This document shows positions 6,165-27,597 of a stretch of 32,488 bases of DNA, in pieces. A program made the translations under genes and the position numbers. The notes beneath the pieces are model-generated. The model had not been told where the DNA came from, made no database searches, and saw only the letters and a list, made by a program, of their open reading frames with translations. Source of the DNA: Chrysochromulina tobinii (taxonomy: Eukaryota); assembly GCA_001275005.1 (NCBI GenBank), contig JWZX01002352.1, forward strand, positions 1-32,488, written 5' to 3'. Every line of letters begins with the position of its first letter. Position 1 is the first letter of the stretch.

Positions 6165-6794
6165 ATGCTTTCCATCATGGCTATGACCTCGGCGGCATTC
6201 GTTCCCGTCATGACACCGGTTCGACCGGCGCCTTTCGCGACGCGGACTCTGGCACCAGAGATGAATGCGGCCTTCCTCGCTTTGGACGCCATCGAGCCGG
6301 CAGTCTCCTCATACGTCAACATCTGGGTGCCTCTCTTCGAGAGCGCCAAGGCGTCGGGTCTCGCACCCGACTTCCTCCTGCACTGGGGGCACGGCGCCGC
6401 AATGGCCACGGTGCTCTTTGCCATGGGTGGCTTCGGCGCCTTCCTTGGCTGGCAGATCCGCTTCGGCAAGGGCGAGGAGGTGTACTCACTGACTCTGGGT
6501 GAGACCGTCCGCGAGCTGCACCCCAAGCTCATGGGCGCTATGCTCTTCTTTTTCCTTCTTGGCGGCCAGGGCGGGCTGGTGCTGCTCGCGACCGGCGGCC
6601 AGCCAATCCTCCAGTCGGCGCACTCGTCCACGGCCGTCATCGGCCTGTCGCTATTGCTGGCGCAGGCGGCGATCGGCGTCACCATGAAGGACTCTGAGCT
6701 CGGCCGTACGGTGCATGCATACCTTGGTACCGGCACGCTGCTCGCCCTCGTGGTGCACGCCTACTTCGGGCTCAACCTCGGCCAATCCTTCTAA
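6165..6794 (+). CDS. Plastid-targeted DUF4079-like (cytochrome b561-like) membrane protein
   Basis: ATG at 6165. Signal-like MLSIMAMTSAAF followed by a transit-like segment (ASAF-type motif of complex plastids). Four hydrophobic helices with conserved His residues: HWGHG, LHPKL, SAHS, HAYLG. Confidence 0.75.
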   Translation: MLSIMAMTSAAFVPVMTPVRPAPFATRTLAPEMNAAFLALDAIEPAVSSYVNIWVPLFESAKASGLAPDFLLHWGHGAAMATVLFAMGGFGAFLGWQIRFGKGEEVYSLTLGETVRELHPKLMGAMLFFFLLGGQGGLVLLATGGQPILQSAHSSTAVIGLSLLLAQAAIGVTMKDSELGRTVHAYLGTGTLLALVVHAYFGLNLGQSF

Positions 6795-8221: not shown

Positions 8222-11200
8222 TTACGCCGCCGCTGTCCCCCCGCTCTCCTGCCGTGCCGTCGGCGTCGTCGGCGCTGCGTCATCCTCGTCGTCGGCTTGG
8301 TCGTCGGCTTGGTCGTCGGCACGATCCCTCTTGGCTTGGTCGATCCGAGCAAAGCGCCTCGCCATAAACCCTCTTGGCGGGCTGAGCACGGCTGCTGCAC
8401 CTGACTCCGAGGCAGCTGCTGCACGTGTCGCCGCGCCAGCAGCGCCGCCGAGTGCCGCTGCTGCTGCTACCGGCTGCGCGCCGTGCCGTGCGCCCACGGC
8501 CTCCGCCTCCTCGATCTCCCGGAGCTCCGTGAGCGCTCGATACGGCGCGCTCGGTACGGCGCGCACCGCCTCCTCGATCTCCCGGAGCTCCGTGAGCGCT
8601 CGATACGGCGCGCTCGGTACGGCGCCCACCGCCTCCTCGATCTCCCGGAGCTCCCTCAGCGCCACCGACAGCTGCGCATGCAACTGCGCCTCCGCGACCC
8701 GCCAGGCGGAGCCTTCGAGGGCATGGGCGCTCAGGACGGCGCTCAGGGCGGCCTGCATGCCTGCGTCCTTGTCCCTCTGCGCGCGCCGCGCGCGCCGTAC
8801 CGAGCGCCCGAACAGGAGGGCGAGCGCGAGCGCGCCGAGCCGGGCGCCGCCGCTCAGTGCGCCCAACGCGACGCCGAGCAGCTGCCACGCCCACGACAGC
8901 GCCCACCATGCCCAGCGCGCCGCCTCGAGCAGCGCCGCCTCGAGCGCGCACGCGGGCGCGGAGCCGGCGAAGCAGAGGGTGCTGACGACGACGTAGGCGG
9001 CGGCGGCGAGGAGGGTGCCGACGCTGGCTGTGAGCGCGGCCATGCGTGCGAGGGAGAGGGCGGACGCGAGGATGACGTGGCCCATCCCAAACAGGAGCGC
9101 CGTCGTGAGCGCGAGCAGCACCGCGCACGTGAGCTGCCACGTGAGCAATCTCGTCTCGAGCTCGGCCACCCGTTCGCTCAGTTTCGTCAACTCGTGGGCA
9201 TGCAGCGCGCTCAACGCGGCCTCGCGCTCACGATGGCGCTCCGCCGCCGCCGCCAGCTGCGCCGCGTGTGTGCGCGTCTGCAAGGAGAGCGCCACGTCGG
9301 CAGCCATCCGCGCATAGTCCGGCTTCGATTCCGCATCGGCTTCCGTAACGACTTCAAGCTCATGCGCCACATTGGCGTGCACGGGAGCCGCCGTCGGTTG
9401 GCTGGAAGCCGAGTCGGCATGGGAAGGCTTGGAGGCTGTGGAAGGTGAGGGAGGGGTCCCTAATAAGGAAGGGGAGGCTGTGGAAGTGGCGGCCGCTCCG
9501 CACGACGAGAGCTCCGTGTCACCGCTAGCCGTGTCTCCCTCTGCAGGGCAAGCACCAGGCTGGCCGCCTACCGCCGCTGCTCCCGCCGCCGTCGAGGGCA
9601 ACGGCTCACAAAACTCGGCCACGTCAGGCACCTCGTTCGCCACGTGGAGCATCAACCGTGCCAAGCGCGCGCCGTTGCGGGCGCATGCATCGGCTGCGCG
9701 CGCGTAGAGGCGCTCAACAGAGCGCTCATCCAATCGCATCAGCTCCTCAATCCGTTTCCGTAACGACTTCCCATCGTTACCGGTCAGGCCACTCGAAGAC
9801 ACCGTCGACCCGAGAGCGCCGTCATGAGCACCGCCGGCTCTGGCGGCGGCGGTGGCGGCTTCAACGACCGCACGCATGCGCGGCGGCTCTGCGCCGGCGC
9901 CACGCTGGTCGACGCCCAGGACGGCACCACGCTGGCGCACGATGAGCCTGGCGAACTCGGGCATCCAAAACAGCCCAACGGGCCGGCGGGAGGCATTGTA
10001 CAGCTTGGCGCGCTCCTCGAGCTCACGTTCAAACGCGGCGACCATCTGCGGGTCTGTGAGCGGCAAGAATGGGTACAGGTTGCCCCGCATGCGATCGCGC
10101 ATCTTGCCCGCGGCAAACGGGTTCGGCGTGCCCCTCTGCGCGTCGCACGGGATCCGCTCGTCGAAGATCATGGCGTCCATGGCCTCCCGAGTCGCCTTGT
10201 ACAGGGCCGTGGGCTCGCTGATGCCGGCGCGTCGTTGACGCGCGACGACGTCGGCCAACGCGTCCATGAAGCAATTGGACGTGAGGATGATGAAGGCACC
10301 TGTGGGGAAGAGAGAGCGTCGTGGTGAGCATATGCATGCCGGGTCGGGGGCTGATGAGGATGATGGGCGCACCGGCGGTGCGCGCGTGCTCGCTCACGCA
10401 CGCGCCCTCAGCTGTCTTACGGCTGAACTCGACGAAGCCCCGATGGTCGATCGCGTTCACCAGGGCGGACGTCATAAAGTCCGCACGCGCCTCCTCGATT
10501 TCGTCAAAGAGCACAACGGGCGCTGGCCGCGCGCACGGGTCCGCGGCCGTGGCCGTTGAGAGGGCCCACGAGGACCAGGAGGCGTCCCCGCCACCCCCAC
10601 CGGCGCCTGCACCGCCGCCGCCCGCGCCCGCGCCGCCCGCGCCGCCCGCGCCCGCGCCTGCGCCTGCGCCGCCACCGCCCGTGCAGCCGACACGCCCGGC
10701 GAAGAGCGCGGCGAACGCACCCTCGCCCTTGACACCGCACGGCGGCGAGACGAGCTTCCACATATCCTCATCCGTCTTGTAGTTCTGCATGCTGAAGCGC
10801 TGAAAGGCCGGAGGCGAAGTGCGACCATGCTGCGCGAGCGCCACAAGCTCCGCAAGCATCGTCTTCCCCGTTCCAGGGAAGCCGTAGAAGAAGAAGACGT
10901 GCGCATCTTGGCCGCCGTCTGCACCACTCGCGATGCCGCGCAGCCGCTGCACCACCTCGGAGACGACGCTCTGCTGGCCCGCGATCCTGTCGAAGACGCT
11001 CAGGTCAGGCCACGTGGAAGCCGCCGAGCCGTCATCGACGCCGACGTGCTGCTGCGCCGGCTGCGCCGACTGCTGCTGCTGCCGCCCGTGGCGCGACTCG
11101 AGCTGCTCGCGCATGCGTGCACCGAAGCGCTCCGTCGGCTCTTCTCCGAGCACAACGGCGACCGCCGAGCGCAGCAGGTGCGGCAGCAGGCGCGGTTGAG

Positions 11201-11744
11201 CGCGTTGCGCGGCACTGAGCCACGGCGCCGCCTCTCCTTTTGCGGAGGAGAGAAGCCTGTGCCGTGGCCCGCTCCGCTTGTCGGGCTGCGCCAGAGCCTC
11301 GGCGCCCCAGCTCGTCGAGAGCGCGAAGAGCACGAGCCGGCAGTCGACGTCCAGCCTCGTGTCGTGCGCGGCGGTCGCGTGCGTGCACTTTGCCTGCTGG
11401 AAGAAGCGCGTCGCGAGCGTGCCCACGGCCGCGGCCGGCGCAAGCTGCGCCTCGCGGATGAGCACGAGAGTCCACAGGCCCTGGCGCTCGCGCAGGACAG
11501 CGCCCACGTCGTCGACGAGCGATGGGCACCCGCCTACGTTCACAGCACACGACAGCTCGCGCCACCCGGCCATCGGTGAGGTGAGGTGCTGCAGCTCGTG
11601 GAGCCGCAGCCAGCACTGCAGGGCCGCCGCGTGCGCAGAGGCGTTGCCGGCGAGCACGACGTGTCCCGAGGTTCTTGGTTCGCCGCTCACCCAGCGCTGG
11701 AGCGGGAAGTCGGTCGAGTGCACGAGTGCGAGGGCCTCGCACAT
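8222..11744 (-). CDS. ClpB-D2/torsin-like AAA+ ATPase with C-terminal coiled coil and transmembrane segments; exons 11744-10373 and 10299-8222 (about 1149 aa; start uncertain)
   Basis: Shows IAGQ, Walker A GFPGTGKT and Walker B VVLFDEIEEA. Sensor-1 FIILTSN and PFLPL are restored by splicing a 73-nt GT-AG intron (10372-10300) that joins ORFs 10029..12017 and 8222..10372 in frame. Confidence 0.75.
8503..8654 (-). repeat. Coding 60-nt tandem repeat (ELREIEEAVxAVPSAPYRALT) x2.5
   Basis: CGCCTCCTCGATCTCCCGGAGCTCC recurs three times at 60-nt spacing. Confidence 0.9.
10300..10372 (-). other. Spliceosomal intron (73 nt): exon-duplicate plus shared 3' module
   Basis: Minus strand reads GTGCGCCCATCATCCTCA...GCATGCATATGCTCACCACGACGCTCTCTCTTCCCCACAG | GTGCCTTCATCATCCTCA, and splicing restores the frame. 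Confidence 0.85.
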
Positions 11745-12145
11745 CGCGACTCTTCCCGCCACAGGGGGAGGTGTGAACGGAGTTGGTGTGTTGTAGTGTG
11801 GCCATGCAAATGAATGCGCGGAGCTCGCCGTTTCTCCGCGACGGGCTGCATGCTGACGCTTCCATTCGATCGCTTCAATCCTCTTCAACTGTAGCCCTTG
11901 TAGATCCCCGCCGTACCCCGCTTTTCTCGGCCCACGGGCCCACGCAGCAAGAATCATCACCGGGCTGCACTTATCAAGCAATCGGTAGCACCCGCCCTTT
12001 CCTTTCTCCCGACACATCCAATCCGGACCTTGCCCTCGCCTCTTTCAGATGCAGCTGCACACTGCATCCGCTCACGGCTCCGCTCCGCCCAGCCTCCCTG
12101 GTGCTCCGGCCTCCGCCGCCGCACACGCAAGTGTGAAGTGATCAT

Positions 12146-12164
12146 TAAGTAAGTAAGTAAGTAA
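12146..12164 (+). repeat. (TAAG)4 microsatellite
   Basis: TTAAGTAAGTAAGTAAGTA. Confidence 0.8.
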
Positions 12165-12614
12165 AACATGCCAACAGGCAGCGTACACGTGGCGAGGGGA
12201 CCGTCCCCAGTGATCATCGGAACCCAGTGAAGTTAGATCGCGACGAGCACCAGAAGTAAAATATATTTGGTTATACATGTGAGATATATGGTTCGAGTCG
12301 CCCACAAACACCAGGCAGGCTCGGAGGATGCAGGATCACACCAAATCACACCAACCACGCCTACGCTTGCACGACTCTCAGCTCTTGAGTATCATTTTTG
12401 TTGAGCTTGTGCACGGCTGTTGAGCGAGCATAGACGTCAACAGATAGTCTCAACACGTCAACAGACGTCGCCTACAGCTCAAGAATGTCCATCTTTCGAT
12501 CTAACTTCGGCCTAAAGGCTCATAAAAGGCTCAGCTGGAGAATTTCGCCATGCCAAATGTACCGTGACATGCGTGGCACTGCTGTGGCATCATGCGTCTT
12601 GCGTGACACAATTC

Positions 12615-13514
12615 CTAGGGTGCATCGATGCACTCATAGGCCTTGCCAAAGTGGATTGAATCTGCGCAACGCTCACGAACATGCTGAATTCTCGAGTAGC
12701 ATTTCGAGTGGTAGTAGTAATATTCAACTGTTGTGATCTCCGTGGGATATTCCGGCAAGTCGCGATGAGCTCTCGGGACTTTGCCGCCGTCCAAAAGCTC
12801 TTTGATACGTGCAGCGATCACATTCAGGCGCGTCTCCTTCTCAACATGATGCCCAGGGTCGCGCCCCTGTGGGTTCCAGCGAAGAACAATCACGTGCGGG
12901 AAGAAGCCATCTTGCACGTACCCATTTTGGCGATAGAGGAACGTCAGCGCCTCGTGCATATCTGTCATCCAGGTAGCGTCGCACTCTTGGAGGCGATCAG
13001 GATGGCCGCCATCTTCATCGCATTCCCAAATTACACACCTTGCTGGGCGGTGACTAAGCCATAGCATATCTGGCCGGCGGCCTTTGTTCACATCGCAACT
13101 TTTTTTGTGTGTGCCAAACATCGTGTCATCGATGCTTGAAGGCAGGTGGCCGGCTCCCAGCTGTTCAAGCTTCGAGAGCAGAGCAGCACGCATGATGAGC
13201 TCGATCCGTTGGGGAGCATTCGAGCTGCACTTGGCACATACGTGGATGTTTGCGTTGCGACGCTGCTGACTCAGGCGGCTACCATCACAGTGTGTGTGCG
13301 CGATACATGAAAACGGGGATCCGGAGCCAAGCTTGCGACCCTTCTCATAAGTGCTGCTTTTGCCGCTCTTGCCGCTCCTGCCACTCTTGCCACTCTTGCC
13401 GCTTTTGCCGCTCTTGCCACGCGTCCCAACAAGGCCGTTTTCACATCTGCATTTCCCCTCCACGTCTCTCTTCTGCTTGCATCGCCGGCAGCTGGGCAGC
13501 GCGGGGCCCCGCAT
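12615..13514 (-). CDS. Zn-finger plus Vsr/EDxH-type (PD-(D/E)xK-like) endonuclease resembling giant-virus MIGE-type proteins
   Basis: First ATG at 13514 (299 aa), intronless. N-terminal CRRC..CRC and CIAH..C..CAKC, plus a (GKS)n linker. C-terminal RRPD..VIWECDEDGGH...ECD...VIVLRWNP...VEYYYY matches the RPD/ExDExxH/IRFNPD pattern recalled for NCLDV and algal endonucleases. Lower GC than neighbouring genes. Confidence 0.65.
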   Translation of the reverse strand: MRGPALPSCRRCKQKRDVEGKCRCENGLVGTRGKSGKSGKSGKSGRSGKSGKSSTYEKGRKLGSGSPFSCIAHTHCDGSRLSQQRRNANIHVCAKCSSNAPQRIELIMRAALLSKLEQLGAGHLPSSIDDTMFGTHKKSCDVNKGRRPDMLWLSHRPARCVIWECDEDGGHPDRLQECDATWMTDMHEALTFLYRQNGYVQDGFFPHVIVLRWNPQGRDPGHHVEKETRLNVIAARIKELLDGGKVPRAHRDLPEYPTEITTVEYYYYHSKCYSRIQHVRERCADSIHFGKAYECIDAP

Positions 13515-13705
13515 TAGGATGTACAGAGATCCCAATGGAACAAGTATGCATGCGGATAAAAAATGGACCACTCACTCACGAGTGGCGCGTGAGAGAGTGA
13601 ATTTTGAATTGAATCCTCAACACACATTCACATTCACACACTTCGTGTGCCTCCTGCTCTCGTAGGAGCCACAGCGTCTGTAAAGAGAGACGTGTGCCAC
13701 TGAAA

Positions 13706-14391
13706 ATGGCGATGACCGAGCTCGAAGCCGCTTACGCCAGGCGCAAGAGCCACCTCATCACTAGTCTCGAGCACGGCATCTTCCTCGGAATGGGCGCGGC
13801 GGCGGCAGACTCCGGCTTGCTCAGCCACAACAGAATCACCCACATACTGAATGTGGCCGACGACGTGCCAAGGTCTGCTGCCACCGAGGGCCTGGTGTAC
13901 TGCTGTCTCAACGTTGGAGATTTCGGCGCGGACGCTGGCATCTCACGTGTGTTTGACGCTGCACTCGCGTTTGTGCGTCCAGCTATCGACTCTGGTGGTG
14001 TCGTGCTCGTTCACTGCGCGAATGGCTCCAATCGATCACCGACGGTGGCCATTGCGCTGCTCATGCAGCTGCGGGATTGGCCGCTCGCTACCGCGTACGC
14101 CCATGTCGCCAGCCGGCGACTAGTGCAGCCGCTCGCCGATAACCGTCGCGAGCTACTGCGCTTCGAGGTGGCGCTGCGCGGCGTGGCCAGCATGGAGGAG
14201 GGCTCCGGAGGCAAGTTGGTGCCCCTTGCTCTTGACTCTAGTGCCGCGCCGCTGACAGCACGAGCAACGCCGCCGCAACCATCGTCGCCGCCGCCGCCTT
14301 CGCTACCGCCTTCGCCTTCGCCTTCGCCATCGCCATCGCCGCCGCCTTCGCCGCCGCCTTCGCCGCCGAACAAAGCCACCGCAACGTTTCT

Positions 14392-14424
<33 letters not shown>

Positions 14425-15367
14425 GCCGCCGCTACCACGCAGCACCTTGGAGGCGGCGATGGCGGGACGGATGGAGGAAGTGGTCACTTGGCTCGACGAT
14501 TGGCTTGAGTGCGGCGATGCTAAGCTCGACTCGAGCGGTGATGTCGTCTCGGAGTGCGCCGCGGTCAAAGCGAAGGACGCCCTCGAAGGCAGCCAGGGCT
14601 GCGTCTCGGCGTGGTTTCACATGGACTCTCGAGTGGAGGCGCGCTGCCAAGAGTGCCGAGAGATGACGTTACTCATTGCTGCCTCGATGGGCGGCCAGAA
14701 GGCTCTGGTGGCCCGCCTCCTTGAGTGCTGTCGGAGTGCGCCCGCGCGCCTCAAGATGACGGGAATGCGCGATGCTGACGGGTACACGGCGCTCATGTGG
14801 GCGGCGGAGCGGGGCGAGTTCGGTGTGGTGGCTGCGCTGCTCAAGGCGGGGGCACTCACAGATCCGCCGTGGCCGTCGGGGGCTGAGTTACAAGAATCAC
14901 CTTCGTCTGAGGCACCATTGTCGTCGGAGGCCAAGGCAGTTTCGACTGAGGGGACCTACCCCCTTATTTCGACGGAGACAGCCCTCACGATTGCGTGCAA
15001 GCTCGGTCACGCTTCGATTGTGTTTGCGCTCGTGCGCGCCGGGGCGAGCACGAGCGCTGTCGACGGGGACGGCGCGTCTGCCCTCGAGTGCGTCGCGCGG
15101 CAAGGGCACGTGGCCGCTGCTAAGGCCTTGATTAGCAAGCAGCAGCTCTCGTCACATGACCCGCACGCGCTTGGTGCCCTGATCGTCGCGGCGATGCGGG
15201 GGCACGGCGCGATGGTGGAGCTCTTGCTGCTGAGTGGGCTCGAGGCCGACGCGCTTGATGGTAACGGGCTATCTGCGCGCTCGGCTGCGCGGATGGAGGG
15301 GCGAGAGGAAGTCCTCGCGGTGATCGATGGCGTCGACCGTCTGAAGCGTGCTGAAGCTTCAAGCTAA
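13706..15367 (+). CDS. Dual-specificity phosphatase with Pro-rich linker and ankyrin repeats
   Basis: Shows IFLG, ITHILNVA and the catalytic VLVHCANGSNRS (HCx5R). Poly-Pro/Ser-Pro run at about 14266-14435. Ankyrin motifs TALMWAAERG, TALTIACKLGH, ARQGH and AAMRGH. Confidence 0.85.
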
Positions 15368-15526
15368 AGGCGAGCGAGTCGCCGAGCGGAGATGAAGAAG
15401 CGACGTGAATAGTGATTTTGTTCCGTTTATCGTGGGTCCCTCGACGACGCGAAGTTGGCGACTATCTCAGACTACTTTTACAATCATACAATGTACCATG
15501 CAGGTCGATCCCGAATCAGACGAAAC

Positions 15527-15588
15527 TTTCCCGCGCGCCCGCAAAGCGCGGACGGCGTTTCCCGCGCGCCCGCAAAGCGCGGACGGCG
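15527..15588 (+). repeat. 31-nt direct tandem repeat x2 upstream of the EF-hand gene
   Basis: TTTCCCGCGCGCCCGCAAAGCGCGGACGGCG occurs twice, identical. Confidence 0.9.
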
Positions 15589-15715
15589 CGGCGCGCGCGC
15601 CGCTCGCGCAAAGTTTACCGGCAAAATGAAACAGAGCCGGCTTTCTGTTTTTTTCGTCGCGCCGTGGGCCTGGGACTTTGGTTGTTCTCGCGGACGTGTC
15701 GAACGATCTCGATAC

Positions 15716-16123
15716 ATGAGTTCCACTACGTTGCTCGACGCCTCGTGGCCCAACAAGACATCTCGGCACGTCCCACCGGTGGCGGCCAATAGCCTGACCG
15801 GGTTCCTTGGCACGTGGGAGCGCAACGTGCTGAGATCCTCGCAGCAGTCAGGCACACTCGGCGCGCAAATGGGCCAGATTTGGAAGTCGAGCCCAGCAAA
15901 TTTCATGACGCTTCCTGTCGCGGTGCAGATGGTGGACGTCGACAAGAGCGGAACCATCGACCGCGAAGAGTTCCGTAGACTGTTGGCGATGAGTGGGTCG
16001 AGCGTGAATTCAGACGCACTCTTCAACAAGTTGGACAAGGACGGTGATGAAACCTTGACCAGGGAGGAGATTGCTCAGCTGCTCGACGTGAGGCGGAGTT
16101 TCATGAAGGCTCGCAATCCATAA
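15716..16123 (+). CDS. Small protein with two EF-hands (Ca2+-binding)
   Basis: ATG at 15716; canonical loops DVDKSGTIDREE and DKDGDETLTREE. Confidence 0.8.
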   Translation: MSSTTLLDASWPNKTSRHVPPVAANSLTGFLGTWERNVLRSSQQSGTLGAQMGQIWKSSPANFMTLPVAVQMVDVDKSGTIDREEFRRLLAMSGSSVNSDALFNKLDKDGDETLTREEIAQLLDVRRSFMKARNP

Positions 16124-16807
16124 GCGTTGTACGGACGCCACAGCAGCGCCTGTGCGCTTGCGCGGCATAGAAGCATTGATGCAACATCGGTTGCTTGACA
16201 AAGCAACGCAAAGAAAGGTGGGAAAACACGCTTGCTCCGCACTCCGCACTCATGTTCAAGTGTCACGGACAGACGAGAGACGGAGCGCCTCACGCTGCGA
16301 GGAAGGACCGTCGGAGACCATGCAAGTCCCAATCGCAACGCCGTCGGTATAGCAGTGTCACGCGCAAGGTCAAGCGGCCTAGATAGGGTCGCTCTTTCCT
16401 CTCTTTCTTATGTCCGATCATGCCTGTACTGCCAGTGTGAGCGCCGTTTTGCGTATTGGTGATCCTTACTGTCTTAGGTCTTCAAGGTCGAAGGCTCGTG
16501 CCGCGTGCGTATGCACTCGGGGCTCCGGGGCGCGCGCGCGGGCCGCGGCGCGCCCCGCGCTAAGCCTATAAAGCCTAAGGGTCGCCTTGCTCGAACATTA
16601 GTTACTTGTCCTGCCATAATTGCCTGACTGTCTATGTCTCTCTGTTGTTCAGTTGGCAAATAAAAACTTCTCTGTTTCTGCCTGTAACGTGCGACTGCGT
16701 TTCGTCAAGCATTTCGCTTTCGGGCAATTTGGCGCTCCGCCGATTGTGCAGCCGATATGCACGTCACCATGCAAGGGCACGGGCGCCCACTACGATCGAA
16801 CATCCAT

Positions 16808-18179
16808 ATGTGGTCATGCGCAGTGGTGCTGGTCCTGCTTGCGCCCGAGGTGAACGCGCAGCAGCCGCCGTCTTTCGTCTCAGGAGGTTCTGTCAAGGTC
16901 GACGGTCCTCCTCCGCCTACACCCATCCCCATGAATCCGGGAGCCCGTCACTCGCACGATGCCGAGATAAATCTTGTGCAGCCGCGGCATGCCCACAAAC
17001 CGCCGCGACACAGAGCGCACGACAATGGCCTAGCGCAGCGCTACCTCGGGACGGCTGGCAATGCCGCCATGAGCGGGAACTGGCGGCTGTGCGCCGACAG
17101 CTACCTCGCGGCTTACTGGGCATGCACCGACGACTGGGAGTATCGGTACATTTGCTGGTCGGGCTACACGTCAGTGCTGCGCGAGGGCAACATCCAGGTG
17201 GCTGCGAGCGACGTGCAGCTGCTCGACGAGGTCGCGTCCGACTCGAGGGCGCCTTCACACCACCGGGTGCAGGCCTTCTTCACACGCGGTTTCGTCGCGC
17301 ACTCGATGCTCAGAGACGACCAAGCGAGCGCGGCCGGGTATGCGAGCGCCGTCCGGGAGGGCGTCAAGGCGCTCGCCGACCTCGCCGCCCGCACCAGTGC
17401 CGAAGGGAAGAGCGCCGTACTGAGCGCCGATGCGAGCATCCTCATGGCCACGTCGGCCGGGTACGTGGCGCCGCGCGGCCCGAGAGAGTGCTCACCACGG
17501 CGCCCCGTCTCCCAGCACGCAAGGGCTCACGACGGCGCCCTCTCCCCACAGGTACGTGCACATGCTGACGAGCAAACTGCTGCACGACCTTCTGGACTAC
17601 GCCGAGGATAATCTCGCGCTGGTGAAGCATGCAATGGCCGAGCAGAGGCGGCTGGGCGAGCTCTCGCGCCCAGGACAGCGCGACGTGCACGACTATGACG
17701 AGGACGAGGAGGGGGAGGGTATGACTTCCTAATGACTTCCTAATGACTTCCTAATGACTTCCTAATGACTATGACGAGGACGAGGAGGGGGCCTTGGCCG
17801 GCATGCAAGTGCTCACCACGGCGCCCCCTCCCCACAGGTACCAAGATCGCCGCCTTGGCCGGCATCGCGCGTCATCACCATGGAGGGCCGCTACGCGCCG
17901 TCGTGGGCGCCACCCGCGACGGGCTGCCCCGATCGGCTCCACGAGGGTCGTGCCCCGCCGCCGTGAGCGCCGCCTTGAGCGCCCAAGACGGCGCGAACCC
18001 CGCAGGCGCCTACGACACGCCGTTGGTGCACACGTCGGCGGCGCTCGAGTTTCGTCACACGTACTATGAGATCGCGCTGCGCAAGCGCGACGAGCTGCGC
18101 GCTGCGCAAGCGCGCCGTCGCAAGCGCCTCGCCGCTGCCGCGATGGGCACGGGCGACGGCGACGACGACGGCGACGACG

Positions 18180-18212
<33 letters not shown>

Positions 18213-18603
18213 TCATCGTCGGCGACGGTGGCGGCGGCGGCGGCGTCGTGGCGAGCGCCGTGACGGCAGATGAAGCTGGCGGCCTGAGCGAGCCGCCAGA
18301 CGCCGTGCTGAGCGCCTCCGCCTCTGGGTACGTGGGCACCCTCGCCTTCGAGCAGCCGCTGCATGCAAGTGCTCACTACGGCGCCCTTCTCTCCCCACAG
18401 GTACGCGGGCACCCTCGCCTTCGAGCAGCCGCTGCCGATGCCGCAGTCGTCGTCACGGGAGTGCCACGTGCACTCGTGCGTGCTCACGGAGCGCGACCAC
18501 GAGTGCCTTCACAGCCGGAGCTGTGAATGGCCGTTAGGCCATCTAAGGCCTGTGGGGGAACAGTTTGTGGCGCCGCGGAAGGTGCGTGAATGGCGGGTCA
18601 AAA

Positions 18604-18635
<32 letters not shown>

Positions 18636-20318
18636 AGCGGCAGTGAGGACGACGTCAGCGACGAGGAGGACGACGTCAGCGACGAGGAGGACGATGAGGA
18701 AGGGGTCGTGGTTGCCAGCCTCGAGCCCGAGCTGAGCCCGGGGGCTTTTTGGCGCCAGCACGTAGGCGCGTACAAGCCCGTCATCGTGCGCGGCGGCGCG
18801 CGCGCCGCCATGGGCGCCCAGCCGTGGGATGACGCCTTCCTAATCGAGCACTGCGCCCTCGCGGATGGGAAGCCGTGGTACGCTAATGACTTCCTAATGA
18901 TTTCCTAATGACTTCCTAATGACTTACTAATCGAGCACTGCGCCCTCGGAAGCCATGGAACGCTGATTGCCACTCATGGGCTCTGGTGATACCCTTGATT
19001 GCCTTCCTCATCGGGTACGCTCTCATCGAGAAGAAAAACCGCATGCAAGTGCTCACCGCGCCCCCCTCCCCACAGGCACGCTCTCATCGTGAAGCAGAAC
19101 CGCATCACACACAACGACCGTCACCCCCTGATGACCGGCTGGACCTTTTGCGACTTCCTCAAGCGCTACAACCGACCCGAGCATGAGAATATGTTGTACA
19201 CGGTCACGCCACTCTCGGAGGCCGGCAGTACGCTACGTCGCTTCCTTTGGCTGCCCGAGCCACTCAGGTGCTCCCACTACTGATGACCTCCCTTGCCTAA
19301 TTAGGTGATACCCTTGATGACCTCCCACTACTTATGACTACTGATGACCTCCCTGATGGCCCCATGATTGCATTTGATGGCCACTCCGATTGCGGCTGAT
19401 GACCACGGGTGGGCGCAGGTGCGCTGAGCTGTATGAGAGCTTGCACGAGGCGCGTCTGTGGATGAGCGCAGGCAACACAACCTCCTCCATCCACTTTGAC
19501 ACCCATGAGAACTACATGCTCCAGCTCGATGGGTCCAAGGACGTGTACATGTACTGCTCGAGCCCAACGGCCGCCTTCCATGCTGATTGCCTCCCTCATT
19601 GCATACAGCTCGAGCCCAACGGCCGCCTTCCATGCTGATTGCCTCCCTCATTGCATGCTGATTGCCTCCCTCATTGCATACTGCTCGAGCCCAACGGCCG
19701 CCTTCCATGCTGATTGCCTCCCTCATTGCATGCTGATTGCTTCCCTCATTGCATACTGCTCGAGCCCAACGGCCGCCTTCCATCTCTCTTCCCTCTCCGT
19801 TCATACCTTTGCCCAATTAGGTGCTGAGATGCGCCTGCCCCTCTTGCCTAATTAGGTGGCACCCCAACGAGTCGCGCAAGCTCTACCTCGACTTCCACAA
19901 CAAGTTCGGCCTCTCGCCCCTCAACGCCGACCGCGTCGACCTCGAACGCTATCCCGAGTTTGCCGCCACGGCGCCGATGCACATGAAAGTGCATGCGGGC
20001 GACGCATTCTACATCCCCGAGGGTCATTGGCATCTCATCATCTCGCACGGGCCGCGCAACGTCGCCGTCGCGCTCGAGTTCGCGCCCTTTGCGCTCGGCG
20101 AGCAGCAGCACTGGCCAGCCCCGGTGACCGAGCGGTACCACTGGCCAGGGCTCTTCTGGGCTGAGTCGGTGCTCATCAGGTATGCGATGCGCGAGCGCTA
20201 CGGCGCCGAGCACTACCACGCGGCCAAGCGCGGCCGGCCCATCACGTGCGAAGAGCTCGTCCCCACTGTCCCCCTCTCTGAGCTCGGATGGCTGGGCTCG
20301 CACGAGCACGCTTCCTAA
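16808..20318 (+). CDS. Signal-peptide-bearing JmjC/cupin-like 2OG-Fe(II) oxygenase with 7 exons: 16808-17460, 17552-17718, 17838-18327, 18401-18877, 19076-19267, 19419-19550, 19856-20318 (857 aa)
   Basis: Six GT-AG introns join the ORF fragments into 2574 nt in one frame. Signal peptide MWSCAVVLVLLAPEVNA; KPVIVRG; LWMS..SIHFDTHEN (HxD); GSK; GDAFYIPEGHWH (distal His). Confidence 0.85.
17461..17551 (+). other. JmjC intron 1 (91 nt) with two tandem copies of the 3' module
   Basis: GTACGTGG...GTGCTCACCACGGCGCCCCGTCTCCCAG-CACGCAAGGGCTCACGACGGCGCCCTCTCCCCACAG | GTACGTGC. Confidence 0.85.
17719..17837 (+). other. JmjC intron 2 (119 nt): 11-mer repeats, exon copies and 3' module
   Basis: GT, (ATGACTTCCTA)4, a copy of the upstream exon, a copy of the downstream exon, then GCATGCAAGTGCTCACCACGGCGCCCCCTCCCCACAG. 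Confidence 0.85.
18328..18400 (+). other. JmjC intron 3 (73 nt): exon-duplicate plus 3' module
   Basis: The first 35 nt equal the first 35 nt of the next exon with 1 mismatch, followed by the module. Confidence 0.9.
18878..19075 (+). other. JmjC intron 4 (198 nt): 11-mer repeats, copies of both flanking exons and 3' module
   Basis: GT...CCCCACAG; splicing gives KPW|HALIVKQNR. Confidence 0.85.
19268..19418 (+). other. JmjC intron 5 (151 nt) rich in TGATGACC-type repeats
   Basis: AG|GTGCTC...GCTGATGACCACGGGTGGGCGCAG|GT; splicing gives EPLR|CAELYESL. Confidence 0.8.
19551..19855 (+). other. JmjC intron 6 (305 nt) with tandem ~52-74 nt units
   Basis: GCTCGAGCCCAACGGCCGCCTTCCAT x4 interleaved with GCTGATTGCCTCCCTCATTGCAT. 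Ends CTTGCCTAATTAG; splicing gives DVYM|WHPNES. Confidence 0.8.
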
Positions 20319-20693
20319 AGTTTCACCTAGTGTACCTAGCTGCTGATAGAATCAAATGTTGAGAAAATGCGGCCGCGAATACTGTATTGGTTATACCCGG
20401 CGCGCCCGCCGCCCGGCAAACGTCGAATAAAAAGTGCACTTATCATGGCACTTAATTTATGTAAGTCACTTATCCGATCCTATCAACCTAATTGTAAATT
20501 GAAGCAACCAACTAACAAAGCTCCAACGGGCTGGGTGTAGCACTTTCCATCACTCTGTTTGGGCCCACTCTCAGTGTGGATAGCATGGGAAAGCAAGAAG
20601 CCGTTCTGCATGCATCGCCGCCGTTTTAATTTTGCGATGACGTTCGGGAATCGTCAGCGAGTGTTAATTGTTGTGTGTTTGCGGTCGCGACAA

Positions 20694-21617
20694 ATGGCGC
20701 CAGAGAAGAACGCGGGCTCGCTCGCCGCAGCCGATGCCCTGCTTCGTTCGCAGCTCCGCCGCGTGGATGAGGGCGTCCGTCAGTCTGGAAATGGCATGCT
20801 AGTGTACCAAGGGAGCATTCTCAGCGAGAGCATGGGCAGGCCTTTACCAAGCCGACCCTTGTCTGCCCGCCCGACTGGCCCCAGTGCGTGGGTGCGGCCC
20901 GGACTGGGAGACGACTCGAGCCCGGGGATCCAGCGCCCAGTCTCCGCACGGAACAGCCGCTTCCCCAATGGCGGCGCCTTCACGGCCATCGAGCGCAAGA
21001 AGCTGCACACGCAGGCGCTGCAACGGCTGCAGAACGACCCGGAGTTTGAGCATCATGAGCATGCGATCACGCCCAACGCCTTTCTGGGCGCGAGCCGCTT
21101 CAGGCAGCTCCTGCCTCCGTCGTCACGGCCTGAATCCACGAGCGTCGCGGGCGCCGTGGCGGCCACCTTCTCGAGCCAGAGCCCGGTAAAGAGCCCGGCG
21201 CCTCGGTTGGCGCCATGGCGGGGCCTCCAAGGGGGCCTCGAGCCTCCACCTCCGCCTTGGCCGCCACCCTCGATGAGTCATTGGGGCCCGAAGGGCGGGA
21301 CGACGACGATGCAATCCGACTTTGTCGACTGGCAACAAGTGTTGCGCCCGTCCGAGAGAGGTGGGCGACCGGTGCGACGACCGGCGGGGTTGTCGCTGAC
21401 GATGGCCTACCCCAATAACGTCCAGGCGCGCCACAAGCTATTCGTGGGTGTGGCGGCCGAGGGCGTCAGGGCGATGCATATAGACCGAACGACGGAGACG
21501 CGCGAGGCATATGGACCAAAGCGGCTCTCGCCACGGCCGTTACCACGGCCGCGCCCGGGCGCCGTCACGGGCGCACCAGTCTGGTATGGTATCCAGAAGA
21601 GTGACCTGTGCTGGTGA
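20694..21617 (+). CDS. Hypothetical Pro/Arg-rich protein, possibly ciliary or microtubule-associated
   Basis: ATG at 20694 follows an AT-rich intergenic region. Contains RPLSAR/RPVSAR motifs and TTMQSDF / TTETREAY motifs reminiscent of Mn repeats (inference). Confidence 0.6.
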   Translation: MAPEKNAGSLAAADALLRSQLRRVDEGVRQSGNGMLVYQGSILSESMGRPLPSRPLSARPTGPSAWVRPGLGDDSSPGIQRPVSARNSRFPNGGAFTAIERKKLHTQALQRLQNDPEFEHHEHAITPNAFLGASRFRQLLPPSSRPESTSVAGAVAATFSSQSPVKSPAPRLAPWRGLQGGLEPPPPPWPPPSMSHWGPKGGTTTMQSDFVDWQQVLRPSERGGRPVRRPAGLSLTMAYPNNVQARHKLFVGVAAEGVRAMHIDRTTETREAYGPKRLSPRPLPRPRPGAVTGAPVWYGIQKSDLCW

Positions 21618-21900
21618 GACCCTCGTGGTGAGACCCTGAGTGCCGTTCTTCCGTGTCGAGACAATTACTCAAATATTTTTTGTTGTTGAGTGTCGACCGC
21701 TGTCCCTCTCGGCTGCCTCGTTGTGTGCAGCCTCGGCTGCCTCTCCGCTAGTCGGAGGCGCCTGCGGCAAACCACCCTTCATTTGCTCAATTGAGCGGTG
21801 TCTTGGACTCTTGGTTGTCGTTTCTAATCAAAACCGTGGGCTGTGAAGAAACTGTGAATGCGCCGCTCGGCGCGTCGCGTCGGTCGGGAGAAGCTGCTCA

Positions 21901-24900
21901 ATGGCTCTATCCTACGCGTCGGCGCTCTTGGCCTCGGCTGCTGCGCTGCTCGAAATATCCGACCGTACGCTGCGCGTTCAGCCCGACATCGAATTTGAGC
22001 TTACGGCGCGCGGCGGCACCGGTTGCATCGAGTGGGTCTCCGAGGACAAAAAACTTGCCAAGGTCGTCGGCCAGAAGTGCGAAGGTGACGGCGAGCTCAC
22101 GAAGTGCGAGGGTGACAGCGAGCTCACCTGCAAGACGTGCTGCGAGGGCGCCGCATCAGTTGCGCGCGTGCGCACGATCGCGCCGCCTCCCGGCAAGACG
22201 CAGCGTTGGTTCACCTTCATCCACGCGAACGCGCTCGACGGCAAGCACGACACCATCTTCTGCGAGGTGAACGTGGCGCCGCTGGACCAGCTGCGCGTGG
22301 TGACGACGGTGCGCCAGGAGCTGCATGCGCACGAGCTGCAGTGGCTGCAGCTCTCGGCCTACGACGCTCTGCCCACCATCTATCTTCACGGCGGCTCATC
22401 CCTGGGCAACGTCTTCTCGCCCCCGGCACTCGAGGCGCTCGACGTGCAGTGGCACTTCCACCCCGAGCGCCTTCTGCAGCCGGTGCCGCCGAATGAGACG
22501 CGGCAGCAGCTGGACGGCGCGCTCGCCAAAGCCGGTGACAACTGGCAGCGCTACCACCGCCTCGCGGTCGTCGCGGGGAGCAACACAGAGGCACACCCGC
22601 TCGAGGTGCGCGTGAGTGCGTCGGTGGCGCTGTCGGGTGGCGGGCGACTCCACACGTCGGAGACGCTGACGATCCAACCGAGTGACTTGCGGCTGGTGCC
22701 GCTGGGGCGCGTGGCACTCGCGCCCACGATGCAAGTGCAATTCAAGCTCCTCACGTGCGATCGCGCTGGCACATGCCAGAAAAAGCCACACGACAGCGTG
22801 GGGCGGGCACCCGATTGGAGCGTGTCACCGACGAAGACCGCGAATGTGCGCATGGCCTCTTGATGGCCACTGATGGCCTCTTGATTGCCTCTTGATTGCC
22901 TCTTGATTGCCTCTTGATTGCCTCTTGATTGTGAATGTGCGCACGCCGAGGCTCACGACGGCGCCTCGCCCCCTCCGCGACGCCTTCGCCATCCCGCCCC
23001 CTTTCCAATCCCCCGTAACCGCCTCCCCGTAACCGCCTTCCCGTAACCACCTCCCCGTAACCGCCGCCACCTAACCGCCACTCGTAACCGCCTCTCGGGA
23101 GCGCAGGTGACGGCGCAAGGGCTCGTGACGGCGCTCGAGTCGGGGAATGCGAGTGTGCGCCTGTACCAGCCGCTCTTCAACGGCAGCATTCCCCTGCTCG
23201 TCTCGCCACCCGCCGCCGTCGTGATGGCGCTGCTCGAAGCCTCCTCTTCCAAATTAGGCGCGGACCTGAACATCCTAATTAGGATCCGCGACGCCTCTTC
23301 CAAATTAGGCGAGGGGCTGAGCGCGCTCGAGGCAGCGCCTGCGCACAGAGCGGCGCCCGACGGCTCGTACCTTCTGCTGCATCGGCCAGGCGCGCCGCGG
23401 CTGCTGCTGCGCACGCACCTGATGAGCCGCGCGCGCGTGGGGGCCGATGCGCAGGGGGGCGCCCAACACGACGCGCCCGCGGGGGGGCACTTGCTGGGCG
23501 GCGGCGGCGGCGGCGGCACGGTGAACCATTCGGTGCCGTTGCTGCTGCCTAGCGACGGCACTAAGACGCCCATCGGGAAGCTCAAGCACCATCTGCCTCA
23601 GCTCAACGCTCGTGACGTGGCGGCCGACAGCGCCGGCGCTTCGTCAGCTTCGTCAGCTTCGTCAGCTTCGTCAGCCGTGGTGGAGCTGCGGGAGGTGGAA
23701 GCGTACCGGTGCGGGAGTGAGTGCACCCTAGAGCGATGTGCACAGGATGGGACGTGCAGGGGCGGTCGCGCGCCGCACCCGGTCTGCCTGTGCCACGAGC
23801 TACGCACGCTGGCGCCGGGCTCTGTGGACCTGCGCGGGAAAATCGAGGCATCGCCGTCGGACGCCCAGCACGACGCGGTGGGCGAGGCGTCGCAATGGGG
23901 GGCACTCGAATCAGTGCTCAGGCTGCGTGTGCTCGAGCCTCTCGAGCTGAAGCCGGCCGCTGCACGCGTGCCGTGGGCGTGTGAGGCGTCCTCGAGTGCA
24001 CGCACGCCCGCCCTCGCACTGCCGCAGCTCAGCGGCGGATCGGGGGTGGCCGCGTGGGCGGTGAGCCCCGGCGACGCGGCGACGCTCGCCACGGCGCCCT
24101 TGGGAGCCACCCCGCTGCTCGTGGTACGACCTGCGCTGCTCACGCTGACGGCGGCCCGAGCCGGAGGGCAAGGTACGCGTCGTCGTCGTCGGACGCGTCA
24201 TACATCTCCACGAGTGCTACTGTCGACGTCGTGCGCGTGGCGTGGCTCGAAATTCATGTGCCCTCCGAAGACGTCGTTCTGGACGCGGACTTCAATGTGA
24301 CGGTCGCGCTGCTCGGTGTGAACGGCCACCCTCTCGCCCTCGACACGTGCGGCGCGCTGCGCTTGAGCTACGAGCTCCTCCACCGAGCAGCCGACTCCCC
24401 CTCCGCCGCCGCCTCCGCCGCCTCCGCCTCCCCCTCCGCCTCTGCCTCCGAGCAGCTCGTACCGGTAACGGCCGTTGGCTCGGCGGGGACGGCGGCAGCG
24501 GGGGAGGTGGCCGTTGCTGCCATGGGCGACCTGCAGTGCCTGCCGCAGTGCCCCAACGGCACCGTCGTGGGCGCCGTCGAGGGCGCCTCGTGCGTGACGC
24601 TCCGGCTGCGCGCGGTTGTCGTCGGGCGCGTCGCCTTGCGTGTGAGGGTCGCGTCTGGATGCGCCGCCGACGCCGCCGACCCCTCCCTCGTCGCCAGCGC
24701 GGAGCGCGTACTTAACGTCTTCGCCCCGCCCCCCGTGCATCAAGTCCAACTGTGCGTGAGCGACGACGACGCGCCGTTCTCGTACGTGCCGCTCCTCCCC
24801 TTGCCACCCACCGTGCGTGCCGCCGCGCTCGCGCACAACCCCGTCTTCGAACCAGCGGCCGGCCAGGCCGACAATCTCGTCGTCGGCGAGATTGTCAACC

Positions 24901-26315
24901 TCGTGAGCTGGGGGCTTCATTTTGAGGTGCGCTGCCGCCGGCGTCACGCGCAAGTGGCCAAGCTGCTGCCTAGCATGCAAGTGCTCACAACGGCGCCATT
25001 TCCCTCGTCCTCAGGTGCGCTGCCGCCGGCCTCACGTGCAAATGGCCAAGCTGCTGCTCAACTATTCCGTCGGACTGCCTCCCCTCGAAGTGGGACTTCA
25101 CGTCACCTGCGGCGACGTGCTTCGCGTCGATGCCGAGGGCGGCAGCCTCGCTATACAGGTGGGCGAGACGGCAGCGCATCCGCTCGTTGGGGCGTGGCGG
25201 GGCGCCCATGTCAGCGCGACGCCCACCGCCGAGGACGCCGACGCCCAGATTGCGATTGAGATTGCGGAGGCGGCGGCGGACGCGGCGGCGGACGGCCTCG
25301 CCCCCCTGCAGCCAAATCGAATGCTCTCCCTCCGAGGCGTGCGCTCCGGCCTCGTGCGCCTCGCCCTACGCGTAGAGCCGCCAAGCGACGCGAGACGCCT
25401 CGACGACGTTTCGTCAGTTTCGGCAGTTTCGGCAGTTTCAGCAGTTTCGTCAGCTTCGTCAGTTTCGTCAGTTTCGTCAGCCGGTGGGGTCGCCTCGGGG
25501 TCCACGCGCCGTGGCGAGCGCCCCCGCAGCCCGCTGGCGACGTGCGCAAGCACAGCGTCGGTGCGGGTACGCGTGGGCAGTCTGGCGCTGGTGTGCCCGT
25601 CGACGAGCGTGCTCGTGGGCGCGTCGGTCGTGTGTTACGCGCTGCATGCCGCCTCGGGTGTCGCGCAGCCACCGGACGCCGCCCTTCTCGCCACCGCTAC
25701 GTTTGAATGGTCGCTCGTCGACGGCGCCCACGACGGCGCGTCGTCGTCGGCCGTGCTTCGTGTGGAGCCCATGGCTGCCTCTGCCTTCGCCGTGCGCCTC
25801 GTCGCGCTCAGCGAGGGTACGGTCACGCTGCGTGTGCACATGCGGAGGCCGGCCAGTGGCGACGAGGCGAGGCACGAGGCGAGGCACGAGGCGTCCCTTC
25901 GCGTGAACGTGCTCCGACCCCTCGTGACCCTTCTCAGCCCGTCGATCGCAAGCGCAGCGCTCGGTACGGCGCCACTCCTCGTGCCGCCCGGTACGGCGCT
26001 TCCCCTCGCGGCCGCCAGCGCTGCGCTCGGTACGGCGCGCGCGCTCTCGTTCTCCCTGTGCGCCGGCGGCGCCGGCGAGGGCGCTCGGGACGGCGCCGAT
26101 GAGGACGCTCGGGACGGCGCCGCGCACGTCGAGGGCTCCACCCTGCACAGCGGCGATCGCCTCGGTCCGCTGTGCGTGCTCGCGACGACGCGCGCCGTCG
26201 TGGGCGATCCCGAGGAGGCGCCCGTCGTGCAGTCGCTGCGTCTCCATATGGAAGTCGTCGCCGTTGCCCAGCTTGGCTGGGCGTATGCCATCAGCGACGG
26301 CACCGACGGCACCGA

Positions 26316-26346
<31 letters not shown>

Positions 26347-27597
26347 CTGGCCGCAGGCGCGATTGCATTCGATGGCATGCTCCACGCGCACTTGCCAACG
26401 GTCCTCTGTGCCCGAGCGTTCGATAGCCTCGGGCGCGCGCTGCTCGGTACGGCGCTCCCCTCCGGCTGGCTGAAGCTGGGGAGCTTGCATGCTGGAGCGG
26501 TACGCGTCAAGCGCATCGGACGAAGCTGCGTGACCGTTTCACTGCATGCAAATGCTCACCACGACGCCCTCTCCCCACAGGTACGCGTCAAGCGCATCGG
26601 ACGAAGCTGCGTGGTCGTTTCAGCCGTTGGCGCGTGGCGGGAGCGGATGCGTGGCGAGGACGGCGACGACGACGCTGCCCGCGCGGCGAACCACACCGAC
26701 TTGACGAACCACACCGACTTGACGAACCACACCGACTTGACGAACCACACCGACTTCGCGGCGGCCGAGGAGGCGGAGGAGGCGGAGGAGGCGGACATGG
26801 AAACTCTCCCTCCGCTGGCCATTTTGGATGCAGTCGCTGCATTGCCCAATGCATCCAGTAGCCTCGCCGCGCACGCGTTCATTCCTCTGTCCCTCGCGCA
26901 CCCCTTGGGCGCTGCTGGTGGCTGGGAGGTCATCCGCAGCGCCTCCGCCACCTTCGCTGCCGCCTCGTACACCGGCGCCGAGGCCGCCGCCGTCCCCGCT
27001 AGGGGAGCCGACGCCACCAACGGCCATGCCGCTGCCGCTAACGCCGAGGCCGGTGCTCGAGACGGCGCGACGGCGCTCGAGACGGCGCCAAGCGACGTCA
27101 CGACCCTCGGCGACCGATTCGACTGGCGGTCGGTCGGCACAGCGGCCCGCGCGGCCATGGCGCACGTGCTGCCCGAGACGGCGCTCCCATTCCTCGAGCT
27201 CGAGCTGCCTACTCTGCCGCTGCCGTCGGTGGATGCGAGCATCCTCGCGCTCTCGGCCGTGCTCGGTCTCGTCCTGATCGGCATGTACCAGCTCTCCTTC
27301 TCGGCGCGGCCGAAGCCGAAGCCCGTCAATGTGCGTGATGACCTCTGATGACCTCTGATGACCTCTGATGACCTCTGATGACCTCTGATGACCTCTGATG
27401 ACCTCTGATGACCTCTGATGGCCACTGATGACCGATGATGACCGAGGATGACCGAGGATGACCGAGGATGACCGCTGATGACCGCTGATGACCAATCTTG
27501 ATTCCCCCCTCCTCAGGTGCGCGAGCTGGGGAAAGAGCTGCGTGGGCCTCAGTCGCCCAAGCACGTCTTCTCGCCCAACCCCAAGCCGCTGGGCTGA
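21901..27597 (+). CDS. NUP210: Nuclear pore membrane glycoprotein gp210-like; exons about 21901-22845, 23107-24926 (unresolved frame change near 24120-24270), 25015-26499, 26581-27330, 27517-27597
   Basis: Signal peptide; FELTARGGTGCIEWVS; CEVNVAPLDQLRVVTTVRQEL..LQLSAYD..GNVFS..W resembles the gp210 N-terminus. Ig-like repeats (VTAQGLVTAL, LSGGSGVAAW, AFDSLGR), a single C-terminal TM helix (ILALSAVLGLVLIGMY) and a short basic/SP cytoplasmic tail; about 1690 aa. Confidence 0.75.
22846..23106 (+). other. Nup210 intron (261 nt) with (TTGATTGCCTC)n, a degenerate internal module and (CCGTAACCGCCTCC)n
   Basis: AAT|GTGCGC...GCGCAG|GTG, phase 0; splicing gives KTAN|VTAQGLVTAL. Confidence 0.8.
24927..25014 (+). 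other. Nup210 intron (88 nt): exon-duplicate plus 3' module
   Basis: The first 43 nt match the next exon with 3 mismatches, followed by GCATGCAAGTGCTCACAACGGCGCCATTTCCCTCGTCCTCAG. Joins ORFs 24054..25259 and 24922..27348. Confidence 0.85.
26500..26580 (+). other. Nup210 intron (81 nt, 3n, stop-free): exon-duplicate plus 3' module
   Basis: The first 42 nt match the next exon with 2 mismatches, followed by GCATGCAAATGCTCACCACGACGCCCTCTCCCCACAG. Confidence 0.8.
26689..26756 (+). repeat. Coding 18-nt repeat x4 (NHTDLT)
   Basis: AACCACACCGACTTGACG in tandem. Confidence 0.9.
27331..27516 (+). other. Nup210 last intron (186 nt), almost entirely (TGATGACCTC)n-type 10-mers
   Basis: AAT|GTGCGT, about 15 10-mer units, then CCCCCCTCCTCAG|GTGCGC. 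The last exon has 26 codons plus TGA at 27595-27597. Confidence 0.8.

Follow-up and report, generated by a model that had tools for sequence, protein, structure and literature searches.

Introner-like introns of Chrysochromulina tobinii share a 3' end and carry long exon duplications, an arrangement that suggests templated copying from existing introns

In a 32,488-nucleotide stretch of DNA of the freshwater alga Chrysochromulina tobinii (contig JWZX01002352.1 of assembly GCA_001275005.1, hereafter the window), we find that seven introns end with the same module of about 40 bases, and that the 5' half of such an intron is usually a direct duplicate of the start of the downstream exon. The duplicate supplies the GT donor, and splicing therefore restores the coding sequence. 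The module works like an introner, but it has no terminal inverted repeats (TIRs), no fixed target-site duplication (TSD) and no similarity of its introns from end to end. We consider it probable that these introns arose by templated insertion, in which a staggered break or nick in an exon is filled with a copy of another intron's 3' end, the source frequently lying in the same gene. The origin of new spliceosomal introns has long been an open question, and bursts of intron gain are now credited to transposons. In the present case each duplicate dates an insertion and the flank points to its parent, and with hundreds of copies, polymorphism between strains and a culturable host the mechanism is therefore directly testable.

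Results

The module and its introns in the window

A 25-base core of the module occurs at six window sites with at most three mismatches and at none in 100 shuffled sequences, while the copy in the AAA+ gene, on the minus strand at 10339, has three mismatches to a 24-base core. All nine copies named in the original prediction, which was made from the window's letters, can be aligned, including the two that it placed inside introns. One of these (17488-17515) is truncated at its 5' end and the other (22941-22975) lacks the AG. Conservation is highest in the branch-point-like GCTCAC, and the module finishes with a pyrimidine tract and CAG and has no A-rich tail. The module introns, and three further features of which two serve as comparison introns, are as follows.

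10300-10372, minus strand: GT-AG intron of 73 nt in the AAA+-like gene, with an 18-nt exon duplicate (15 identical), a linker and the module at 10300-10339; reading frame and DNA contig
17461-17551, plus strand: JmjC gene intron of 91 nt, with a 7-nt duplicate, the truncated module at 17488-17515 and a second module at 17515-17551; RNA in 3 of 4 runs, and DNA
17719-17837, plus strand: composite JmjC intron of 119 nt, with an 11-nt tandem repeat and the module at 17801-17837; reading frame
18328-18400, plus strand: JmjC intron of 73 nt, with a 35-nt exon duplicate (34 identical) abutting the module at 18361-18400; RNA in 1 of 4 runs, and DNA
18878-19075, plus strand: JmjC intron of 198 nt, with an internal 30-nt exon duplicate at 19015-19044 (26 identical); RNA in 4 of 4 runs
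24927-25014, plus strand: intron of 88 nt in the Nup210-labelled gene, with a 43-nt exon duplicate (40 identical) and the module at 24973-25014; RNA in 1 of 4 runs
26500-26580, plus strand: intron of 81 nt in the Nup210-labelled gene, with a 42-nt exon duplicate (40 identical) and the module at 26544-26580; RNA in 2 of 4 runs
22941-22975, plus strand: degenerate, AG-less module copy within an intron at 22846-23106 predicted from the reading frame
19268-19418, plus strand: comparison intron lacking the module at its 3' end, with 10-11-nt repeats of a second family; RNA in 4 of 4 runs
19551-19855, plus strand: comparison intron lacking the module at its 3' end, with repeated exon copies and second-family repeats; RNA in 4 of 4 runs

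Duplicates of the exon start are thus present in five window introns (18, 7, 35, 43 and 42 nt), and the two others have more intricate forms. At 19015 the 30-nt inner unit overlaps the module at 19041-19075 by GCAT. The composite intron at 17719-17837 contains a copy of the end of the upstream exon (17767-17791), followed by a copy of the downstream exon (17791-17804) that runs into the module. The original prediction held that only the 3' half is common to these introns, and this is borne out, the 5' halves being locus-specific exon copies. The same prediction took the 5' half to be simply sequence of the host gene and set the family apart from TSD-making introners on this ground. Both points have to be revised, since what comes from the host is a long target-site duplication, copied from the start of the downstream exon. 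The gene labels of that prediction hold in part: JmjC/cupin is supported, AAA has a below-cutoff match only, and Pfam finds nothing in the first exon of the gene labelled Nup210.

Splicing of the module introns

Splice joints were read from the contigs of four RNA runs, and by this evidence three module introns are firmly spliced, two are weakly supported and two are defined by the reading frame alone. RNA contigs join across 17461-17551 in three of the four runs, across 18328-18400 in one and across 18878-19075 in all four. The last of these joints gives an intron of 198 nt in place of the 61-nt intron that had been predicted to end with the copy at 19041-19075. The 88-nt skip of 24927-25014 is weak because it is seen in a single contig from one run that is about 2% divergent from the window. 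The joint across 26500-26580, found in two runs, is weak because it spans a 34-nt perfect repeat that an assembler could collapse. Neither 10300-10372 nor 17719-17837 is among the RNA joints listed, where low cover leaves no evidence either way, and both removals are required for an open frame. Removal of 10300-10372 lengthens the AAA+-like open reading frame (ORF) from 662 to 1240 amino acids. In the JmjC gene, removal of six GT-AG introns leaves an open frame of 874 codons, which is broken if any one of them is retained, and the spliced protein matches its homologues across the junctions in the conserved parts. Some contigs of the RNA libraries run unspliced through or into JmjC introns, reflecting either retention or DNA. 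With this gradation, the claim that the module ends seven introns is upheld.

Exon duplicates in a larger set of copies

Scanning 4 of the 64 parts of a metagenome collection yielded 136 loci (numbered with an L below) and 171 exact matches, with an estimate of about 2,300 stretches, and after removal of duplicates and of copies with short flanks 154 distinct module copies were left. In this the family resembles introners in the broad sense, which place similar sequence in the introns of many unrelated genes. A pyrimidine tract and AG are present in 121 of the 154 copies and an acceptor tract is lacking in the other 33; CCCACAG is the terminal sequence in 92 of the 121. A duplicate was called when its score exceeded the 99th percentile of mismatched-locus controls. 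By this measure the exon start is duplicated at 92 of the 121 acceptor-bearing copies, over 12-50 nt (median 25 nt) and with a median identity of 95%, 27 of the 92 being perfect. The duplicate begins with GT in 79 of the 92 and with GC in six (85 together), so that one splice site is carried by the insert and one is recruited from the duplication, and the implied intron length is 57-95 nt in 88 of the 92. Among 83 simple cases, duplicate lengths spread broadly over 13-50 nt, unlike the short fixed TSDs of TIR- or MITE-type introners, and 0-29 foreign linker bases follow the duplicate. A recapture calculation, in which seven loci were repeated among 91 of culture type, gives about 544 exact-core loci per genome (range 264-1353) on the assumption of one strain for the culture-type assemblies, as suggested by pairs that are 99.7-100% identical.

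The orientation of the copies was predicted to be always sense. This is true of all seven window introns, and in 216 of 223 same-locus pairs both copies have the same strand, but a core in L060 (601-624) lies opposite to the strand of the neighbouring intron. By eye, the reverse complement of that core may encode the last codons and the stop of the gene concerned.

The acceptor of these introns belongs to the module, which differs from tandem genomic duplication, where both splice sites come from a duplicated AGGT; in 20 of 91 targets no base upstream of the GT is in common with the module's acceptor. Several of the acceptor-less cores lie between direct repeats. A manual count of in-frame cases among AG-less copies (10 of 21 clear repeats) is unconvincing as a bias. 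L134 has the mirror form, with the donor carried and the acceptor taken from a 20-nt duplicate; two of eight such cases passed the control.

Differences between the intron copy and the exon copy fall at third codon positions in 43 of 77 cases, and A/T-for-G/C differences are balanced between the two copies (44 vs 37). This is in line with later decay of copies across a range of ages. At one JmjC site a conserved Glu is kept in the intron copy and the exon has Val, which prompted the idea that the exon copy is made by error-prone synthesis. As a general rule this idea was rejected on account of the 44 vs 37 split and of another homologue that shares other exon residues.

These features also bear on whether the repeats are artefacts of assembly, which we regard as hardly conceivable. 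Assemblers can collapse or duplicate repeats longer than 31 nt, and the joint at 26500-26580 is affected by this. Against this, contigs of an independent DNA run are continuous, with 0 differences, through the introns at 10300, 17461 and 18328, the duplicates have diverged and with a tendency to third codon positions, and orthologous loci agree between different assemblies.

Strain comparison and local likeness of modules

Five cross-strain locus pairs were aligned. An 81-nt insert in L098, which combines a 33-nt perfect duplicate with six foreign bases and the module, is absent from L011; this is the one clean case of presence and absence that the comparison of strains called for in the original prediction has produced. 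L025 has one additional tandem unit relative to L063, and in L131 there is a 42-nt duplication, with a short acceptor tail, that L060 lacks. In the two remaining pairs the modules are common to both strains. The empty site in L011, together with the 27 perfect duplicates, indicates that the module has been active recently, the direction of the change not being polarised. Splicing and recent presence/absence between strains are thus both found, as in introners in the broad sense, and the predicted intron-generating, introner-like nature of the module is supported in this respect.

The insert in L098 also points to a source. Of the 115 independent introns, just one has exactly this tract; it lies some 470 nt away in the same gene and also has eight flank bases in common with the insert. 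Local likeness was examined by permutation in 57 same-contig pairs forming 21 groups, in which the L098 pair is one group. A flank is shared over at least 4 nt in 10 of the 57 pairs (1.6 expected, p 0.0002), the same minor core variant occurs in 11 (2.0 expected, p 0.0006) and the same tract start in five (1.0 expected, p 0.005). An early test of local similarity on core mismatches was not significant (p 0.13). Between contigs, 28 of 20,705 pairs have a long upstream flank in common, where shifted controls give 0.75. Many of these pairs represent a subfamily that is linked with repeats of the second family; others stand alone, for instance L048/L076 (24 nt) and L111/L132 (13 nt). At zero-linker junctions, microhomology of 2-9 nt with the core is seen in 7 of 10 non-tandem cases. 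These results suggest that modules are likely copied from other introns, often nearby ones, and that this is an ongoing route to new introns.

It could be argued that the introns are old, that the module is a long species-wide splice signal, and that the exon duplicate came from aborted intron loss in which an mRNA or cDNA template replaced the 5' half. This would predict exactly an exon copy followed by an old 3' half. It would also agree with the strong conservation of the branch-point-like bases and with the finding that most modules are common to strains (three or four of the five pairs), and the empty site could be a loss. We nevertheless think it very improbable. At least four window introns do not end in the module, which together with the site empty in another strain argues that it is not simply a genome-wide splice consensus. 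Moreover, flanks upstream of the core are common to unrelated genes, the polymorphic insert in L098 matches its neighbour base for base, and acceptor-less cores stand between direct repeats. A 672-amino-acid homologue that spans the JmjC intron sites lies on a contig of 2,077 nt with no room for introns, but this record may be a transcript.

Ends of the module

The original prediction of no TIRs agrees with our results: in 121 copies the longest inverted match between the ends is 2-5 nt, no more than in shuffled sequences, and the longest direct match is likewise 2-5 nt, as in shuffles. No RNA structure in the module exceeds shuffled sequences, the folds of four modules and the core (RNA parameters) having z values of -1.25 to 0.26, with a palindrome of 6-8 nt at the 5' edge. 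Rfam gives 12 matches, all under the gathering score and none overlying a module, and on these grounds a small-RNA origin of the module was rejected.

A further question is whether the module could be a non-autonomous transposon, very short but with defined ends, that is mobilised either by target-primed reverse transcription, as a short interspersed element (SINE) would be, or by an HUH transposase of the Replitron-1 type. Whichever enzyme acted would make the variable duplication and sometimes carry along flank of the parent copy. The sharp 5' boundary, the predominant CCCACAG terminus and some 500 exact-core copies agree with this. So does the geometry, since the edge of the duplication is fixed at the 3' end of the element and variable at the 5' end, which is typical of target-primed insertion and matches SINEs and other non-long-terminal-repeat (non-LTR) elements. 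Variable TSD length in target-primed insertion has been described (PMC8557442). Replitron-1 also has one fixed end, a fuzzy end taken from the parent flank and variable TSDs, and the latter two are found here, with the direction from parent to daughter not established. PMC10288648 lists one Replitron-like fragment for C. tobinii and describes the locus as an incomplete single copy. In other respects the module does not resemble such elements. Terminal direct and inverted repeats and the poly(A) or simple-repeat tail and small-structural-RNA head of SINEs are all absent from it, and the RNA-parameter folds give no stable hairpin. Tracts are identical in only 0.1% of between-contig pairs, and the same-gene bias and the AG-less and mirror forms are unexpected from a few master copies. 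On balance we regard a transposon of this kind as unlikely, while still a serious candidate.

Discussion

Templated insertion by nicking and copying with a template switch is in our view the best explanation, since the duplicates and ends are variable, the microhomologies short and the templates biased to neighbours. A staggered nick or break would open in an exon, and repair synthesis would switch template at a few matching bases. A linker, the core and the tract would be copied from an existing intron through its CAG, after which synthesis would resume 13-50 bases upstream of the point of departure and leave the insert between two copies of the exon segment X. If X starts with GT, the spliceosome would excise one X with the insert, the protein would be unchanged, and such events would therefore survive in exons; other outcomes would survive in introns, in untranslated regions or in frame. 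Every new intron would then be a template for the next. The template may be DNA or intron RNA, and the start may be made by a dedicated nickase or by a reverse transcriptase. We further speculate, as a possibility that we would not yet call probable, that introns breed introns with no transposase of their own. Into a break, a repair polymerase or a borrowed reverse transcriptase would copy the branch-point and acceptor end of a neighbour, possibly from pre-mRNA of the same gene, and the 5' splice site would come from the long duplication that repair leaves behind. If so, neighbour-templated copying would let introns be gained en masse in a chain reaction, invisible to screens for whole-intron similarity.

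Several observations weigh against templated insertion. In 42 copies retrieved by their 3' half only, GCATGC is 76-93% conserved, exceeds the adjoining AA, and conservation falls just upstream of it. This sharp 5' edge could be the defined end of an element, but it would be expected equally if selection maintained a splicing motif. At the 3' junction, matches to the upstream exon of the target do not exceed those of controls, a result that also led us to reject copying of the acceptor from that exon. A significant duplicate was not detected at 29 of the 121 acceptor-bearing copies, and 47 of the 57 same-contig pairs share fewer than four flank bases, so that most have no special likeness. The second acceptor family often has exon copies too, which speaks for templated insertion, but only 4 of 18 pass a control threshold that is inflated by shared repeats. 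Finally, clean presence and absence was seen in only one of the five cross-strain pairs, and gain and loss are indistinguishable from one pair because the repeats permit exact deletion to the same empty site.

The division of labour between insert and duplication is not new. As here, introners of Symbiodinium and of Polarella glacialis (classes 4/5 and 6/8/10) bring in the 3' splice site with the insert, use the first bases of the TSD as donor and leave the mRNA unaltered (bioRxiv 2020.10.14.339549; bioRxiv 2022.06.06.494994). However, their TSDs are fixed and short (3-8 nt in the Polarella classes) and those of Symbiodinium have inverted repeats, in contrast to the variable 13-50 nt and the lack of TIRs in the module introns, of which the duplicate makes up about half. 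The introner of a marine Chrysochromulina (Gozashti et al. 2022) belongs to the same genus, has no TIRs and takes one splice site from the duplication, but with a 4-bp TSD, a carried donor and a recruited acceptor it is the reverse of the present arrangement (bioRxiv 2022.06.06.494994; PMC9860276). A 17-base segment of the module was not found in the searched portion of the supplement text of PMC9860276. Replitron-1 of Chlamydomonas reinhardtii is similar in its ends, variable TSD and copy-and-paste movement (bioRxiv 2022.12.15.520654; PMC10288648); it differs in its length of 0.9-3.6 kb, its 6-bp terminal direct repeats and its RG target, and in these accounts is not reported to make introns (bioRxiv 2022.12.15.520654). 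Its insertions are rarer than expected in coding sequence and in introns (PMC9977147).

Intron gain by double-strand-break repair in Daphnia and by tandem genomic duplication resembles the present case in that direct repeats flank the introns and the exon duplication gives a splice site (PMC3443670). In those gains the filler is unrelated or both sites derive from duplicated AGGT, whereas here it is the recurring 3' end of an intron in hundreds of copies. The introner elements of Micromonas pusilla show the same sense bias, strain presence/absence and a proposed intron-to-intron propagation, but are similar from end to end, unlike the module introns (PMC3879977). The original prediction of a possibly undescribed mechanism thus stands in part: a carried acceptor with a donor from a short fixed TSD of 3-8 nt is already known, while long variable duplications with parent flank and local copying appear not to be in print. 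No account of the module family was found in the literature searched, subscription papers and some supplements lying outside that search. A 2025 survey of 8,716 genomes lists 0 introner families for C. tobinii (PMC12130899). If the C. tobinii assembly carries the module family, as we infer, half-intron families would be a blind spot of such surveys, and recent intron gain would be undercounted.

Other observations

The second intron family is built of tandem repeats 10-11 nt long whose cores resemble branch points. It frequently ends in CATCAG or CTCAG, and at about ten loci it runs directly into the 5' end of the module. Its repeats are located as follows.

17721-17770, 18883-18931, 19268-19418, 19551-19855, 22855-22931 and 27336-27493: second-family repeats in the window, with many loci outside it

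A self-complementary motif, CTAATTAG, unites a branch point and an AG. It is found in the window at 19299, 19815, 19850, 23252, 23277 and 23303 and also in L016 and L135, and it forms the acceptor at 19855 and the end of two module introns among the loci. At 23245-23310 a short exon duplication surrounds the motif and, judged by eye, may be a 51-nt in-frame GC-AG intron.

In L137 (2880-3060), the only hit in the viral collection, a duplicated stretch, 10-nt repeats and a full module lie at the contig end beside an ORF of 687 amino acids. This is probably a chimeric contig end and possibly a real insertion.

Elsewhere in the window, the Nup210-like gene changes frame at about 23980-24298 with no obvious intron, which may reflect a one-base insertion or deletion, an assembly error or an unseen intron. 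A short intergenic stretch of TAAG repeats at 12146-12198 has very high summed DNA read depth, which we did not take as copy number, and is probably the end of another repeat family. A partial cysteine-rich ORF at 1-1209 has no Pfam match; we presume a likeness to algal transposon proteins. The intronless gene at 13706-15367 has a dual-specificity phosphatase domain fused to ankyrin repeats, and the gene at 6165-6791 clusters at 90% identity with a protein of Chrysochromulina parva. Many perfect in-frame tandem duplications occur within coding sequence, at 3199-3274, 3995-4118, 8503-8662 and 26687-26756, which suggests a general tendency to short duplications.

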